DNA of 29,281 nucleotides. Source: a virus. Taxonomy: Duplodnaviria; Heunggongvirae; Uroviricota; Caudoviricetes. Positions 1,869 to 10,153 of this stretch are shown in pieces. The stretch is taken from the IMG/VR virus record IMGVR_UViG_2671180846_000020, one strand, 5' to 3'. The translations under genes were made by a program, and so were the position numbers. The notes below the pieces were generated by a model. The model was not told the origin of the DNA, did no database searches, and saw only the letters and a program-made list of their open reading frames with translations. The first letter of the stretch is position 1. Every line of letters starts with the position of its first letter.

Positions 1869-2373
1869 ACAGGCTCGTGAGGCTCTGGATGCCTGGATAT
1901 GTCGACCAGGAATGACACAGGAGCAGGCGACGATATTAATCACTGAAGCATTCTGGGCTTTGAAAGAGCGCCCGAACATCGATGTTCAGCGTGTCACAGA
2001 TGAAGGTGGCGCGGTTGATCAGCGAGCACTTGGCGTTAATCGAGTGAAGATATTCGAACGCTGGAAGGCTATCGACACCAGGGATAAGCGTGAAAAGTTC
2101 ACGGCGCTAGTGCCTGCAATTATGGAGGCTATTCGGATTAATGATTTCAGGTTGTATCGTGAAATTAGTGACGGAAAAAGCATCACGTACATGATCGCCG
2201 GGTTAAACAAAGAATATGGCGATGTGGTGGAGTCCGGACTGCTTTTTGCTGATCCTGCCGTAGTGGATCGTGAAACTGACGAACTTATAGAAAAAGCAAT
2301 TGCTTTCAAACTTGCGTATCGACAGCAATACCAACAAAAAGCTGGATGGAATTATGAGCCTTCTTTTTGCTGA
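1852..2373 (+). CDS. YdaT-like protein (position-based), function uncertain
   Basis: 173-aa ORF overlapping the Cro-like stop and followed by the replication initiator, the position YdaT occupies in Rac-type prophages. The family assignment is not verified by alignment. Confidence 0.55.
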   Translation: MKITPEQAREALDAWICRPGMTQEQATILITEAFWALKERPNIDVQRVTDEGGAVDQRALGVNRVKIFERWKAIDTRDKREKFTALVPAIMEAIRINDFRLYREISDGKSITYMIAGLNKEYGDVVESGLLFADPAVVDRETDELIEKAIAFKLAYRQQYQQKAGWNYEPSFC

Positions 2374-3319
2374 ACGCCCACTGGTTATAAACACACAGCT
2401 TGCGATGAAGATTGGCTTAAATGAAGCCATTGTGTTGCAGCAGTTGCATTACTGGTTGAGAGATACCAATTCCGGCATGGAATGTGATGGTGTTCGCTGG
2501 ATTTACAACACAACGGAACAATGGCTGGAACAGTTCCCATTCTGGTCAGAGTCAACGTTAAAGCGCGCGTTTGCAAGTCTGAAAACGCTGGGGCTTTTGC
2601 GTTGTGAAAAGCTCAATAAATCAAAGCGCGATATGACCAATTTCTACACGATCAACTACGGGAGCGAGCTTTTAGATGGTGGCAAATTGAGCGAATCCAT
2701 CGGTTTAAAATGCGCCGCTCCATCAGGTCAAAATGACACGATGGAAGAGGTCAAAATGAAACGCTCCATTGGTTCAAAACGACCCAATGTCATCGGGTCA
2801 AAATGGCCTGATGATCTTACAGAGAATACAACAGAGATTACTACAGAGAATAAAAACACTTTTCGTCCGGAAGCTTCGCAACCGGACCAGCAGACCGCTG
2901 AACAGGATTTTTTAACCCGGAACCCCGACGCGGTTGTGTTTAGTGCGAAAAAACGCCAGTGGGGTAGCAGGGAGGATTTGGCGTGTGCGCAGTGGATTTG
3001 GGGGCGGATCGTGAACCTTTACGAACAGGCTGCCAGCGACGATGGAGAGATCATGCGACCAAAAGAGCCTAACTGGACAGCCTGGGCCAATGACGTGCGC
3101 ACAATGCGGATGCTGGATGGCAGAAGCCACAGACAAATTTGCGAAATGTTTGGTCGGGTACAGCGAGATCAATTCTGGGTAAAAAACATCATGAGCCCGT
3201 CAAAACTCCGCGAAAAATGGGACGAACTGGTCATCCGCCTGGGACGTTCACCTGTACAGCGTTGTGTGAATCATATTTCTGAACCGGATACAGAAATTCC
3301 GCCTGGTTTCAGGGGATAA
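2354..3319 (+). CDS. phage replication initiation / replisome organiser protein (O-like, YdaU-like)
   Basis: 321-aa protein in the replication position of the rightward operon; its N-terminal region resembles phage replisome-organiser domains. Start could be 2300 or 2354. Confidence 0.6.
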   Translation: MSLLFAERPLVINTQLAMKIGLNEAIVLQQLHYWLRDTNSGMECDGVRWIYNTTEQWLEQFPFWSESTLKRAFASLKTLGLLRCEKLNKSKRDMTNFYTINYGSELLDGGKLSESIGLKCAAPSGQNDTMEEVKMKRSIGSKRPNVIGSKWPDDLTENTTEITTENKNTFRPEASQPDQQTAEQDFLTRNPDAVVFSAKKRQWGSREDLACAQWIWGRIVNLYEQAASDDGEIMRPKEPNWTAWANDVRTMRMLDGRSHRQICEMFGRVQRDQFWVKNIMSPSKLREKWDELVIRLGRSPVQRCVNHISEPDTEIPPGFRG

Positions 3320-3359
3320 GTGTTGATTTTAGGGTATAAAGTAATGTTCAGGAGGACTT

Positions 3360-3779
3360 GTGGCAAAAGTTTTTACACAAGAAGAGCGGGAAAAAATTAA
3401 AGGGCAGGTGGTGGAACTCGTACGCCAGAGTGGGCGCGAGACGTTACGACAACTGGAAGCTAAAACTGGGGCAACAAGATATCTGATGAGCGTTCTGGCC
3501 AGAGAGCTGGTTGCCAGTGGCGATGTATACAGCTCTGGTTACGGGTTATTCCCGTCTGAACAGGCGCGTAAGGACTGGCAAAACGCCCGCAAAAAACTCT
3601 CGAGGGCAAAGGTGAAGAAACCTGCTGTGGTTGATCCGGACCTTATCTGGTCATTACCTGACGGAGAAATACGTCGCTACGACAGTCGTCTAAACATAAT
3701 CTGTCGCGAGTGCCGGAAGGCAAGGAGAAGCAGGCTATTGTTAACACCAAGCTGTAATGTCCCCTTTGAACCATTCTAA
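3360..3779 (+). CDS. hypothetical protein, GTG start, C-terminus possibly altered by the adjacent insertion
   Basis: 139-aa ORF with a basic, DNA-binding-like character and no Walker A motif, so it is not a DnaC/P-like loader. It ends directly before the transposase gene. Confidence 0.4.
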   Translation: MAKVFTQEEREKIKGQVVELVRQSGRETLRQLEAKTGATRYLMSVLARELVASGDVYSSGYGLFPSEQARKDWQNARKKLSRAKVKKPAVVDPDLIWSLPDGEIRRYDSRLNIICRECRKARRSRLLLTPSCNVPFEPF

Positions 3780-5450
3780 AATGTCCCCAGACAATTCTCT
3801 GGGGGATTTTTCATGATCAAAGAGACTGTTACGATGAGTCATAAGGAACTCCACCGACTTCAGATTATTCAGGAGTCAATTAATCGACATATTACTCAGG
3901 AACAAGCTGCGGCACGCATTGGCATTTCTATTCGGCAGGTTAAACGTCTGGTGCAACGGTATAGAAATGAAGGGCCTTCTGGTCTGGTTTCCCACCGACG
4001 TGGAAAGCGTCCTAATAATTCCTTTTCTACTGAATTCAGAGCAACAGTAATTTCACTCCTCAAAGGCCGTTACGCTGATTTTGGACCTACGTTTGCGTGC
4101 GAAAAATTGCGCGAGATACACGGTTTATCTTTATCCGTTGAAACTCTCAGAAAGTGGATGATAGAAGAGGGGTTATGGCGTGAACGCCGTCGTAAAATTG
4201 CCCGTATATATCAACGCCGCATGCGACGACCATCTTACGGTGAACTGATCCAGATTGATGGCTCACCTCATGACTGGTTTGAAAATCGAGGCCCCAGATG
4301 TACACTGATCGTTTTCATTGATGATGCCACCAGTGCGTTGATGGCGTTGCGTTTTGTGCCTGCTGAAACAACCCGGGCTTACATGGAAACCCTCCGGGGT
4401 TACCTTAATGATCATGGCGTACCGCTCGCTCTCTACTCTGATAGACACAGTATATTCAGGGTAAATAACCCAGAGCGGGAAGGTGAGCTGACCCAGTTCA
4501 CTCGTGCGATAAAGACACTGGGCATCGAGCCAATCCATGCCAACAGCCCGCAGGCAAAAGGGCGGGTAGAGCGCGCCAATCAGACACTACAGGACAGGCT
4601 GGTCAAAGAAATGCGGCTTCAGAATATCAGTGATATTGAAACAGCAAATGCATGGTTGCCGACCTTTATTGAAGCCTATAACAACCGGTTCGCTACGTCG
4701 CCTCGTACTACTGATAATGCTCATCTTGATGTGCACCATTCTGAAGAGGAACTGGGTTATATCTTCAGCCTACAGGCGAAGCGCGTTCTGTCTAAAAATC
4801 TCACTTTCCAGTACAAAAGCAGTGCGTTTCAGGTACGCAGTGAGGGCCGGGGATATCGACTTAGGCATTCGGTTGTTACTGTATGTGAGAACTTTGACGG
4901 TGAAATTAACGTTCTGTATGACGGGAAAGCGCTGGGCTGGGAAAAGTATGTTGATGGCCCGGAGCCTATACCACTGGATGATGAAAAGAGTGTCCATGAA
5001 CGAGTGGATAATGCCCGTATTGATTTACGCTCAAAATACTATGTTAAATCTAAAGCTGACCATCCCTGGCTTACGCGCCGAACGCAAAGTCATCAGCAAG
5101 TTAAGCCCCCGAAGTTACCTAAAAAGAAGCCTGATCCCGATAAAATAGATTGAAACCAAGATCGATTCGGTTGAGTGCATATCCATTCATAGGGTAGATT
5201 CTTAAGTCGCGTTTCTGATGTTCATTTTCGGGTGGTTTGTTACTTGTTTTACCGGGGATATGCCAGAAACGCGCTGAGTCAGTCTGGGCGGTGCGCGTAA
5301 TGAGGCGTTATGGTAAATAGCCTATGCTAATGTCCGCTAAGAGCAAGAAGCGGAAGTTGGCAGTTTTGTGGACTGTCCCCACAAAAGTGACTACAGAAAT
5401 AGTTGCAATTCATAATTGATCATGGGTTGTCAGTTAAACTCGTGGCGATT
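3780..5450 (+). mobile_element. insertion sequence carrying a single DDE transposase (IS481/ISNCY-like); ends not resolved
   Basis: One 446-aa transposase gene with no phage role sits between the replication genes and flxA. I could not identify terminal inverted repeats or a target-site duplication by eye, so the boundaries are approximate. Confidence 0.45.
3813..5153 (+). CDS. DDE transposase, integrase-core (rve) type with N-terminal HTH
   Basis: N-terminal HTH (ITQEQAAARIGISIRQVKRLVQRY) and a D-D-E catalytic pattern (LIQIDGSPHDW ... LALYSDRHSIF ... QAKGRVERANQTLQDR) with the basic residue after E typical of the retroviral-integrase fold. Confidence 0.85.
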   Translation: MIKETVTMSHKELHRLQIIQESINRHITQEQAAARIGISIRQVKRLVQRYRNEGPSGLVSHRRGKRPNNSFSTEFRATVISLLKGRYADFGPTFACEKLREIHGLSLSVETLRKWMIEEGLWRERRRKIARIYQRRMRRPSYGELIQIDGSPHDWFENRGPRCTLIVFIDDATSALMALRFVPAETTRAYMETLRGYLNDHGVPLALYSDRHSIFRVNNPEREGELTQFTRAIKTLGIEPIHANSPQAKGRVERANQTLQDRLVKEMRLQNISDIETANAWLPTFIEAYNNRFATSPRTTDNAHLDVHHSEEELGYIFSLQAKRVLSKNLTFQYKSSAFQVRSEGRGYRLRHSVVTVCENFDGEINVLYDGKALGWEKYVDGPEPIPLDDEKSVHERVDNARIDLRSKYYVKSKADHPWLTRRTQSHQQVKPPKLPKKKPDPDKID

Positions 5451-5589
5451 TAAATAGACTAATTGGGAGTGCGTCCATTACTTATATCTTGTAATGTTAA
5501 CTATCAGAAATGATACAAAGATAATATGTCTTTAAAGAAAAGGCTGATGGCGAAAAGTGGCCCGATGAGGGCCACAATACGGCTGTCAC

Positions 5590-5922
5590 TTAGACGTAAA
5601 TATCAATGGTGCCAGCGGTATTTGTATCGTCTTTTTTCTCTTCTTTTTTATCAGGCTGAACTGTCGCGTCTTTATTCTTTTTCTCTGCCTGCTGCCTTAA
5701 CAACTGCTCCAGTTGAGCCCTGAGGCTTTCAATTTGCTTCTGTACCAATGCAGCCATTTCTTTTTTCTGCTGTGTCGTCATCCCCTCTTCCGATGAGATT
5801 TTCCCAAGCTTTTCAGTCAGCACCTGAATTTGTCTTGTGATTTTGGCTATTTCTGATGTTCCTTCCGGGGCGGAGTTGTTTGAAATAACGGTTGAGGTAT
5901 TTCCCTGAATTGTGACAGACAT
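5590..5922 (-). CDS. flxA: FlxA (FliA-regulated protein)
   Basis: 110-aa protein MSVTIQGNTSTVISNNSAPEGTSEIAKITRQIQ... recognised as FlxA of the Qin prophage; a sigma-28-type promoter lies upstream. Confidence 0.8.
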   Translation of the reverse strand: MSVTIQGNTSTVISNNSAPEGTSEIAKITRQIQVLTEKLGKISSEEGMTTQQKKEMAALVQKQIESLRAQLEQLLRQQAEKKNKDATVQPDKKEEKKDDTNTAGTIDIYV

Positions 5923-5945
5923 AGATTTCTCCTTTTAAAAAAGCA

Positions 5946-5972
5946 CTATCGGCATGCACAAAAAAATCTTTA
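5946..5972 (-). promoter_or_regulatory. sigma-28 (FliA) promoter for flxA
   Basis: On the minus strand TAAAGATT-N11-GCCGATAG, a close match to the sigma-28 consensus TAAAGTTT-N11-GCCGATAA, just upstream of flxA. Confidence 0.55.
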
Positions 5973-6124
5973 ATCGTATTTCTTGTGTCATTAATTGTTT
6001 GATGTTCAGATTGTTTTCCTCGCGGGCTGGCGCGCCTCAGAAAGTAAAGCTTGTTGACAGGGGTAAACGTTCGGCAATAATTTTCTGCCGCATGCGGGTG
6101 TTGCATAAAACGTGCTACGTTCCT

Positions 6125-6430
6125 TTATCGACAGGTCAGGTCACCGCTCACCCGCCGACGAGAAAGCAACACTGACATGCTAAAGCAAAAAATAGATGAA
6201 TAAGTTGAGTTGTGCATATGTAGCCTGACCGTCACAAAGTATATGGTGTCTGTACCAGTAAGATGATGGCCGGACTCTTTAAAAACGAGCTGACCTGCAC
6301 AATACAGGATGGACTTAGCAATGGCTGCTCCTGGCACAAAGCGGACAGTGATCACCGTTCTTACGACTACTTTCTGACTTCCTTCGTGACTTGCCCTAAG
6401 CATGTTGTAGTGCGATACTTGTAATGACAT
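6125..6430 (-). CDS. doubtful ORF, 101 aa (YdfV-like by position and length)
   Basis: Length and position match the YdfV ORF annotated next to relB in Qin, but the composition is not protein-like and its start lies inside the relBE operator. Confidence 0.25.
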   Translation of the reverse strand: MSLQVSHYNMLRASHEGSQKVVVRTVITVRFVPGAAIAKSILYCAGQLVFKESGHHLTGTDTIYFVTVRLHMHNSTYSSIFCFSMSVLLSRRRVSGDLTCR

Positions 6431-6454
6431 TTGTAATTACAAGAGGTGTAAGAC
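6395..6454 (+). promoter_or_regulatory. relBE promoter and operator
   Basis: The palindromic repeat TTGTAATGACATTTGTAATTACAA lies immediately upstream of the relB start, as in the known relO operator. Confidence 0.6.
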
Positions 6455-6694
6455 ATGGGTAGCATTAACCTGCGTATTGACGATGAACTTAAAGCGCGTT
6501 CTTACGCCGCGCTTGAAAAAATGGGTGTAACTCCTTCTGAAGCGCTTCGTCTCATGCTCGAGTATATCGCTGACAATGAACGCTTGCCGTTCAAACAGAC
6601 ACTCCTGAGTGATGAAGATGCTGAACTTGTGGAGATAGTGAAAGAACGGCTTCGTAATCCTAAGCCAGTACGTGTGACGCTGGATGAACTCTGA
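6455..6694 (+). CDS. relB: RelB antitoxin
   Basis: 79-aa protein MGSINLRIDDELKARSYAALEKMGVTPSEALRLMLEYIADNERLPFKQ... recognised as RelB; its stop overlaps the relE start (ATGA). Confidence 0.9.
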   Translation: MGSINLRIDDELKARSYAALEKMGVTPSEALRLMLEYIADNERLPFKQTLLSDEDAELVEIVKERLRNPKPVRVTLDEL

Positions 6695-6981
6695 TGGCGT
6701 ATTTTCTGGATTTTGACGAGCGGGCACTAAAGGAATGGCGAAAGCTGGGCTCGACGGTACGTGAACAGTTGAAAAAGAAGCTGGTTGAAGTACTTGAGTC
6801 ACCCCGGATTGAAGCAAACAAGCTCCGTGGTATGCCTGATTGTTACAAGATTAAGCTCCGGTCTTCAGGCTATCGCCTTGTATACCAGGTTATAGACGAG
6901 AAAGTTGTCGTTTTCGTGATTTCTGTTGGGAAAAGAGAACGCTCGGAAGTATATAGCGAGGCGGTCAAACGCATTCTCTGA
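6694..6981 (+). CDS. relE: RelE mRNA interferase toxin
   Basis: 95-aa protein MAYFLDFDERALKEWRKLGSTVREQLKKKL... recognised as RelE, translationally coupled to relB. Confidence 0.9.
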   Translation: MAYFLDFDERALKEWRKLGSTVREQLKKKLVEVLESPRIEANKLRGMPDCYKIKLRSSGYRLVYQVIDEKVVVFVISVGKRERSEVYSEAVKRIL

Positions 6982-7052
6982 ACCAAAGCATGACATCTCT
7001 GTTTCGCACCGAAGGTGACACTTCTGCTTTGCGTTGACAGGAGAAGCAGGCT

Positions 7053-7100
7053 ATGAAGCAGCAAAAGGCGATGTTAATCGCCCTGATCGTCATCTGTTTA
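7053..7100 (+). CDS. hokD: Hok-family toxin (HokD/RelF-like), N-terminal 16 codons only; rest masked by the N run
   Basis: MKQQKAMLIALIVICL is the start of a Hok-type membrane toxin immediately downstream of relE, then the sequence becomes N from 7101. Confidence 0.6.
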
Positions 7101-7157
7101 NNNNNNNNNNNNNNNNNNNNNNNNNNNNNNNNNNNNNNNNNNNNNNNNNNNNNNNNN
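7101..7157. other. run of 57 N (gap or masked sequence)
   Basis: Uninterrupted N characters in the supplied sequence; it interrupts the hok gene. Confidence 0.99.
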
Positions 7158-7171
7158 CGCACCCGCACTTA

Positions 7172-7203
7172 ACCCGCTTCGGCGGGTTTTTGTTTTTATT
7201 TTC
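7172..7203 (+). terminator. rho-independent terminator after hok
   Basis: Hairpin CCCGC-TTCG-GCGGG followed by TTTTTGTTTTTATTTT. Confidence 0.55.
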
Positions 7204-7318
7204 AACGCGTTTGAAGTTCTGGACGGTGCCGGAATAGAATCAAAAATACTTAAGTAGCGCGCAGGGATAAGAGGGATGGTCCCTTAAAGGGGAGAGCTAA
7301 TTATCCGGAAGGATTCTG

Positions 7319-9868: not shown

Positions 9869-10153
9869 AAATGGGGCAATGGTAATGTTGAATCTCATCC
9901 CGGGACTCATGTCTGTTAACTTATTATTTAGCTGGTGACTTGGTTATTTGCCTGATGTTTAAAATGTTTTCTTCCAGTACAATGTCCCTAAACACAATGA
10001 GTCTGCTTATTATATTATTAGCAGAGCTATTACGGCCAAAGTACAGCATAAGCTTTTAAAGCCAATCAACCAGTCATCAAGACAGACGGGGTTATTCATA
10101 AAAACTCTCCATGTGTGATCCGATGGGGCCTGAAATTAAAGCTTTAATATAGC

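Follow-up and report, generated by a model that had tools for sequence, protein, structure and literature searches.

What a transposase gene is doing next to the replication genes of a lambdoid prophage, and what its arrival has cost that prophage, is the question raised by a 29,281-nucleotide stretch of viral DNA (IMG/VR record IMGVR_UViG_2671180846_000020, Caudoviricetes). We call this whole stretch the window; features lie on its plus strand unless stated otherwise. An earlier note, made from the sequence alone, had read positions 3360-5500 as an insertion sequence (IS), perhaps truncated, sitting where a helicase loader gene would be expected. We find that the transposase belongs instead to an IS1202-family transposon that is complete, measures 3,301 bp (3739-7039) and carries the relB and relE genes (relBE). 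Taken as a whole, we consider very probable an account in which this transposon entered the start of the toxin gene hokD, likely through a preference for hok genes, and a deletion of 2.1 kb followed. Over this region the window matches the Qin-like prophage of Escherichia coli O26:H11 strain 11368 at 100% identity (NC_013361, our locus L001).

The ends of the element

The open reading frames (ORFs) lie where the earlier note had placed them: a 139-aa ORF with a GTG start (3360-3779), the 446-aa transposase ORF (3813-5153) and then a stretch without ORFs ahead of flxA. The note had also found that the ends of the IS could not be defined by eye, and with reason, the right end at 7039 being situated 1.5 kb beyond the interval that it had covered. 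A search for repeats within 3300-5700 likewise returned no credible terminal repeats, and a TGT at 3753 and an ACA at 5395, picked by eye as candidate ends, were dropped for want of pairing.

Homology to plasmid copies that are more than 99% identical (from Enterobacter, Klebsiella, Phytobacter and Salmonella) starts at window position 3711, and in some of these plasmids it continues through flxA, ydfV, relB and relE to 7043-7057. The first outside copy taken as a guide to the ends, on plasmid L002, was misleading, other IS (ISKpn8 and ISEsa2) having cut it on both sides. The element starts with TGTTAACACC at 3739 and finishes with ...GCGTTGACA at 7039, and its outer ends are thus TGT...ACA. 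The left inverted repeat (IRL; TGTTAACACCAAGCTGTAATGTCCCC..., 3739-3768) matches the reverse complement of the right inverted repeat (IRR; ...GCTTTGCGTTGACA, to 7039) at 22 of 30 positions, the subterminal motif [AG]TGTC occurs at positions 19 and 43/44 counted from both ends, and comparison of the junctions reveals a perfect 15-bp target site duplication (TSD), GGAGAAGCAGGCTAT, on both flanks (3724-3738 and 7040-7054). The insertion of a mobile element that had been suspected is borne out by these repeats, the TGT...ACA ends and the duplication, whereas its truncation is not.

The same anatomy recurs elsewhere. When one genome per species was scanned, 78 loci came up; complete elements from Enterobacterales measure 3,301-12,843 bp, all with the same IRL and IRR and with TSDs of 14-16 bp, a length read in 15 sister copies. 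Copies more than 99% identical to that of the window occupy other targets (L003, L006 and L026), those in the replicons of L003 and L006 each having a TSD of its own (GGAGAAGAAGGCCAT and TGGAGGGGCTATGAT, respectively), as do longer copies in L011 (GGAGAAGTCAGCTAT; 12.8 kb) and L012 (GGAGAAAAAGGCTAT; 7.1 kb). Pairwise comparison resolves these elements into three parts: a conserved left module (IRL, transposase and a non-coding tail; 3739 to about 5344-5366, or some 1.61 kb), a variable cargo slot (5359-6326 in the window), and a conserved right module with relB, relE and the IRR (6327-7039). Here the slot holds flxA and most of ydfV; in sister elements it has been swapped for ncrABCY and chrBA metal-resistance genes together with others (L011), for SDR/LysR genes (L012), or for other IS.

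Conservation between elements ends at 5344-5366, which gives a length of about 1.61 kb, similar to the 1,609 bp of ISEsa1, for which "no TSD" is listed (PMC10132070). It could hence be supposed, in essence as the earlier note had read it and in line with the ISfinder definition, that the window holds no more than a common IS of the ISEsa1 type, some 1.6 kb long (roughly 3739-5350), with no TSD or with its right end lost, and that flxA and relBE are mere prophage neighbours. We regard this as highly improbable: there is no inverted IRL-like sequence at 5340-5400, every complete copy has its IRR and TSD beyond relE irrespective of its cargo, and relBE accompanies the transposase onto plasmids of four other genera. 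As a candidate for the right end of an IS, the break in homology at 5354/5358 was discarded because the IRR and TSD lie distal to every cargo.

Alternatively, a 1.6-kb IS could have skipped its own right end in the manner of ISEcp1 and used a chance IRR-like site next to relE, thereby capturing relBE and hok. As in the transposition units of ISEcp1, the cargo does occupy the interval that separates the transposase from the distal end. Such units, however, use variable and poorly matching surrogate right ends, and here the same IRR is found in all copies, has the subterminal motif spacing of the IRL, and has no proximal counterpart; moreover, hok is not part of the element, and each site has a hok of different sequence. 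Relatives without cargo are also telling. In Hahella, a cargo-free IS of 1,449 bp (62% transposase identity; at least nine copies examined) has homologous ends and 15-bp TSDs, and the right end of a cargo-free IS of the Rhabdochlamydiaceae, ...TTTTGCGTTGACA, has a tip near-identical to that of the window, ...CTTTGCGTTGACA; the IRL is homologous in both groups as well. Because these simple IS carry homologous ends, the end at 7039 is the ancestral IRR, and we hold capture by read-through to be very unlikely. That the element is a complete, cargo-carrying transposon is a conclusion about which we have little doubt.

The transposase

The 446-aa protein (3813-5153) is an intact DDE transposase (D149, D210, E253) of the ISNCY/IS1202 type, scoring 465 bits with NCBIfam NF033594 (ISNCY_2; cut-off 250) and matching the Pfam domains HTH_28, HTH_29 and HTH_32 in its N-terminal part as well as rve_3. 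It differs at no more than 3 of 446 residues from three plasmid copies that are annotated as intact. The DDE motifs align with retroviral integrase, the match in a PDB sequence search being marginal and used only for the second D and the E. The window copy may still be able to move. RefSeq/PGAP splits this uninterrupted ORF (NC_013361 2156248-2157588) into a C-terminally truncated pseudogene and a 49-aa "ydfW", an annotation error that apparently stems from propagation of the K-12 name ydfW.

Directly ahead of the transposase start codon, inside the left end, an inverted-repeat search predicts a terminator-like hairpin (3784-3805) followed by ATTTTTC. It may insulate the transposase gene from outside transcription (from the hok promoter or by read-through from the preceding DUF977 gene) or occlude the ribosome-binding site.

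Insertion into the start of hokD

The nature of the target becomes apparent at the right junction. There the TSD copy runs into ATGAAGCAGCAAAAG..., the start of hokD (7053-7208), supplying its Shine-Dalgarno sequence and the "AT" of its start codon, so that the insertion point is the Shine-Dalgarno-to-ATG stretch of this gene. At the left junction, 28 bp of the hokD mRNA leader are left (3711-3738), matching at 100% the sequence directly upstream of hokD in L013 (7000-7028). The hokD ORF itself is intact: a run of 57 N at 7101-7157 hides its middle in the window, and the L001 copy, readable there, translates to an intact HokD.

When both flanks were fused in silico, uninterrupted sites were found in many E. 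coli genomes, and the Qin-like prophages of NRG857C and ECCHD184 have such empty sites with an uninterrupted hokD leader. Their gene order is repressor, cro, cII-like/YdaT, O-like, DUF977, one or two ATPase genes, hok/sok leader, hokD and rem. The earlier note had placed the insertion in the replication module; these sites place it in the translation-initiation region of hokD. At the empty site of L014 the Rfam sok model (RF01794) scores 118 bits over 6858-7032, an interval that spans the insertion point, whereas an Rfam scan of the window found nothing, a negative that is telling only when set against the empty site. The window accordingly has the hok ORF and the 28 bp of leader, but no longer a mok/sok leader ahead of it.

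The relE-IRR-hokD junction is present in 1,165 of 5,426 complete E. coli genomes. The 446-aa protein does thus recur at one position in about 1,165 genomes of the species, and this might have been the mark of a conserved phage gene; it does so, however, with terminal repeats and a TSD.

A later deletion

An associated deletion had been suspected, and it is readily delimited. The window tracks L014 up to position 4886 of the latter and rejoins it at 7000, and the 10-bp sequence GTGCCGGAAG, common to DUF977 and the hokD leader, is found at both breakpoints (in the window, at 3710-3719). The 2.1 kb lost between these microhomologies comprised about 20 codons of DUF977, the gene for a 495-aa P-loop ATPase of the Sll1717 family (NCBIfam, 250 bits), and nearly all of the leader/sok region.

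This also accounts for the odd C-terminus that had been remarked in the 139-aa ORF: through the deletion, DUF977 now reads into what is left of the hok leader, its final 28 bp. The native portion of the ORF is 3360-3719, and its final 19 or so codons are foreign, derived from the leader remnant and the left end of the transposon. Consistent with this artefact, the Pfam DUF977 match covers profile positions 1-115 of 134 and ends at residue 121, and alignment with the intact 140-aa homologue in L014 shows divergence after residue 120.

In Shigella flexneri SFBU0723 (L026) the same insertion is present with its leader intact and with the intervening 1,980 bp retained. The junction of an intact leader with the IRL occurs in 690 of the 5,426 genomes and the deleted junction of the window type in only 105. 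Since the insertion is thus found with an intact leader in L026 and in 690 genomes, this distribution fits an order in which the insertion would have come first and the deletion later.

The interval between DUF977 and hok differs from one relative to the next (L013 2659-6368; L014 5267-6754; L094 4950-6400; L095 5340-6689). It contains the Sll1717-family P-loop ATPase, two AAA ATPases, a methyltransferase and other genes of no named function, and from this content it looks like a moron or defence hot spot.

The replication module

Could the insertion or the deletion nevertheless have destroyed a helicase loader gene, leaving a replication-defective prophage? The earlier note had taken the replication module to be likely incomplete. 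Upstream of the mobile element and outside it lies the gene for an O-like, DnaD-like replication initiator (2354-3319; PHROG phrog_391, "replication initiation O-like", 5.5e-93; a 339-aa ORF, annotated as 321 aa in NC_013361). It is followed after a 40-bp gap by the GTG-start DUF977/Ren-like gene (3360-3779; Pfam DUF977, 4e-22; PHROG "Ren-like"). No loader gene lies between the two, and the layout is therefore not the O-P-ren arrangement of the lambda type.

Loss of a loader could be contemplated, since in lambda and Rac the O-like gene and ren/DUF977 are separated by a gene of the P/DnaC type, and since a P-loop ATPase gene was among the deleted 2.1 kb. The deleted ATPase, however, belongs to the Sll1717 family, its gene comes downstream of DUF977, and in relatives other genes take its place. 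The order cII-like, O-like, DUF977 without a P/DnaC gene is also that of the empty-site prophages and of the isolated phages HannyBb and mEp460_ev081, in which DUF977 directly follows the O-like gene and is itself followed by variable morons, mok/hok and rem. Furthermore, the O-like protein matches PHROGs described as "DnaD-like helicase loader". Phages that are viable and share this O-like/DUF977 module have no separate loader either; the transposon therefore neither stands where a loader would be nor took one away, and we give the loss of a loader very little credence.

A probable preference for hok start regions

The hokD insertion is not an isolated case. At least nine distinct start regions of hok-family genes have been hit by copies with both ends identified; the plasmids involved come from Enterobacter, Klebsiella, Salmonella and Phytobacter, and the targets include hokD, R1-type hok variants and a pndA-like gene on an IncI plasmid; four further hok sites were observed from the left side only. 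Each of these TSDs is local in origin and begins at or beside GGAG after the conserved GCCnnnnGGCAA hairpin, and the breakpoints fall on the same nucleotide relative to the motif GGCAA|GGAG in at least nine divergent hok genes. An identical 6,093-bp element is found in two different hok genes (L016 and L022). Thirteen other surveyed hok-associated sites have one orientation and L029 the reverse. At this last site (Citrobacter, about 9912-9926), which was read from one side, the 15-bp hok target GGAGAAGAAGGCCAT is used in the opposite orientation.

Two processes could perceivably produce such a pattern without any targeting. First, the conserved hok leaders could support homologous recombination between hok loci. 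Second, insertion could be random and followed by selection, as plasmid hok loci are perhaps permissive places and several non-hok insertions are known. Spread by homologous recombination is ruled out by the local duplications that flank each copy on both sides, which recombination would not make. As for selection, mere inactivation of hok would need no breakpoints at the same nucleotide in so many divergent genes, and the near-uniform orientation speaks against it as well; recurrence at the level of the nucleotide argues that the machinery chooses the target, rather than selection merely retaining it. We therefore judge recombination or selection together to be unlikely, if less remote than the alternatives considered for the anatomy of the element.

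Several points nevertheless weigh against targeting. Five insertions, with TSDs of 14-16 bp, lie outside hok, most of them in a Scandinavium lineage of 80% identity that shows no hok bias. The preference is deduced from natural insertions only, some copies at hok sites may not be fully independent events, and selection could enrich for hok insertions, for example if a plasmid hok locus were a harmless or useful place to land. On this balance of evidence, targeting of hok by the transposition machinery is the likely explanation of the pattern.

Immediately 5' of the TSD, relatives free of cargo and insertions outside hok often show CAA, GGCAA or ACA, resembling the GGCAA|GGAG of hok (compared in L034-L044 from Hahella, in L050-L073 from Rhabdochlamydiaceae, and in L018, L025 and L046). 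This suggests a weak target motif that would be common to the whole family and similar to the tip of the element's own IRR.

Consequences for hok and the Qin prophage of K-12

The course of events can be put together as follows. The transposon entered the Shine-Dalgarno-to-ATG stretch of hokD in a Qin-like lambdoid prophage and duplicated 15 bp there. Its transposase or transpososome would prefer the translation-initiation region of hok, with a cut immediately 3' of the GCCnnnnGGCAA hairpin and, in most cases, the same orientation of the element. The 15-bp duplication regenerates a Shine-Dalgarno sequence and start codon before hok, and the whole element separates hok from its mok/sok control region. 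A 2.1-kb deletion between the two copies of GTGCCGGAAG came later in the O26 lineage and left DUF977 joined to the leader's final 28 bp. In this new setting hok lies 70 bp downstream of relE, terminator prediction found no site between relE and hokD, and hokD is probably expressed through read-through from the relBE promoter.

In the older literature, relB-relE-relF (hokD) of K-12 is one transcription unit. The K-12 Qin region ydfX-ydfW-flxA-ydfV-relB-relE-hokD is 99.7% identical to window 4969-7100 and has the same IRR-TSD-hokD junction. Unlike the window, it has suffered a deletion corresponding to 2132-4968, by which the O-like gene, DUF977, the IRL and 385 transposase codons were lost. Left behind by this deletion were ydfX, which is a fragment of YdaT, and ydfW, which consists of the final 49 transposase codons; because so much is missing, the mobile element became unrecognisable in K-12 and ydfW came to be annotated as a gene. 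Judged by sequence comparison, the ydfW-flxA-relBE-hokD region of K-12 is a truncated relic of the same insertion, and the classical relB-relE-relF operon would accordingly have originated as a junction between a transposon and its target. K-12 ydfW, flxA, ydfV and relBE could then be seen as pieces of one transposon, and this would explain the long-noted rearrangement of hokD.

Cargo and neighbouring genes

The 436 bp at 5154-5589, upstream of flxA at position 5590, hold no ORF of 40 aa or more, as the earlier note had remarked of some 430 bp. They are no mere leftover, however: over 5154-5358 they form a conserved non-coding tail that belongs to the transposase module, homology to elements with other cargo ending at 5344-5366. 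Both boundaries of the slot, 5344-5366 and 6327-6336, are sharp and recur among elements with unrelated cargo. The left one is at a GTCCGCT...AGCGGAC hairpin, and in the window a palindrome with 16-nt arms (5356-5394) begins exactly there. The IS110-family element ISEsa2 has been found, in several plasmids and genomes, at one recurrent position in the tail of the transposase module (equivalent to about 5348 of the window; about 4700 in L002; at the cargo ends in L016 and L018), which suggests that it may target the boundary hairpin.

Within the cargo of the window, flxA (5590-5922) and ydfV (6125-6430) are on the minus strand. The latter, which has neither Pfam nor PHROG matches, straddles the boundary at 6327, its 5' third lying in the conserved relBE promoter region and the remainder in the variable cargo, and it may be no genuine gene. 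In the right module, relB (6455-6694) and relE (6694-6981) adjoin. They were confirmed with NCBIfam NF008412 (133 bits; cut-off 96) and TIGR02385 (54.7 bits; cut-off 27.9), and their products are the same RefSeq protein entries as in the K-12 annotation.

The 12.8-kb version of the element (L011; NZ_AP018757.1 135515-148357), with ncrABCY for nickel and chrBA for chromate resistance, is situated in the psiB-psiA-hok leading region of IncF plasmids from clinical Phytobacter. Its type of left junction and the ncr cargo also occur in Enterobacter and Klebsiella plasmids (L007, L008 and L010). The cargo of these transposons thus includes nickel and chromate resistance genes on clinical plasmids of Enterobacter, Klebsiella and Phytobacter.

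Comparison with known systems

A full-text literature search found no description of a relBE-bearing transposon of the IS1202 type, no account of hok genes as its targets, and nothing that identifies ydfW as part of a transposase, and a 2026 preprint that surveys Hok loci mentions nearby IS elements but not a relBE transposon. Taken together, our findings redefine a catalogued IS lineage, whose members become transposons that carry cargo, duplicate 15 bp of their target and strongly favour particular sites, and suggest that a mobile element with one addiction module targets and rewires another.

IS1202-family transposases are 394-507 aa long, with N-terminal HTH domains and an RNase-H fold; the IS themselves measure 1.3-2.5 kb, have imperfect terminal repeats with TGT...ACA ends and a second, internal copy of the inner repeat motif, and fall into classes with TSDs of 3-5 bp, of 16-28 bp, or, for ISEsa1, none (Harmer & Hall 2023, PMC10132070). 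The element described here has the transposase (446 aa, N-terminal HTH and rve_3), the imperfect TGT...ACA repeats and the internal motif near each end. Its 15-bp TSD comes near the long-TSD class and contradicts the absence of a TSD in the ISEsa1 subgroup. At 3,301 bp in the window and as much as 12,843 bp in other copies, it exceeds the compact size of the family; it is a passenger-carrying transposon on an IS1202-type core.

RefSeq labels its gene "IS1202-like element ISEsa1 family transposase", and the catalogued ISEsa1 has 1,609 bp, a terminal inverted repeat matching at 15/22, no TSD and no known target (PMC10132070). Both share two N-terminal HTH domains with a DDE catalytic domain, the imperfect repeats and the extra internal repeat. 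The present element differs from ISEsa1 in its 3.3-12.8 kb, its right end beyond cargo and relBE, its 15-bp TSD and its insertion mostly at hok starts. Going by the RefSeq label and the module size alone, the 1.6 kb of ISEsa1 appear to be the conserved left module only, and an entry so confined would list no TSD. On balance, we favour the broader view that ISEsa1-type elements are misdefined in ISfinder, being relBE transposons that home to hok starts; that their insertion would strip hok of its antisense control and place the toxin behind relBE; and that K-12 relBE(F) would be a decayed copy.

Similar in behaviour within the family is the ISAjo2 group, which targets dif/pdif: its insertions, too, keep one orientation and a constant spacing to a short conserved site, and they involve no accessory targeting proteins. 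It makes 5-bp TSDs 5 bp from the XerC half of dif, however, as opposed to 15-bp TSDs at hok starts. Transporter IS (tISKpn21, tISKpn65 and tISRel10) and small unit transposons likewise have an IS-type transposase and terminal repeats around passengers; the element differs from transporter IS in having both a conserved relBE passenger beside the IRR and a separate hypervariable slot (flxA, ncr/chr or other IS). As to hok loci themselves, Pedersen and Gerdes reportedly described in 1999 that IS150 or IS186 lies beside hokA, hokC and hokE of K-12 and that hokD was inactivated by a "major rearrangement". These cases resemble ours in that chromosomal hok loci are disrupted by mobile elements, but they involve unrelated IS families without a common insertion point, whereas the relBE transposon recurs at the same hok nucleotide.

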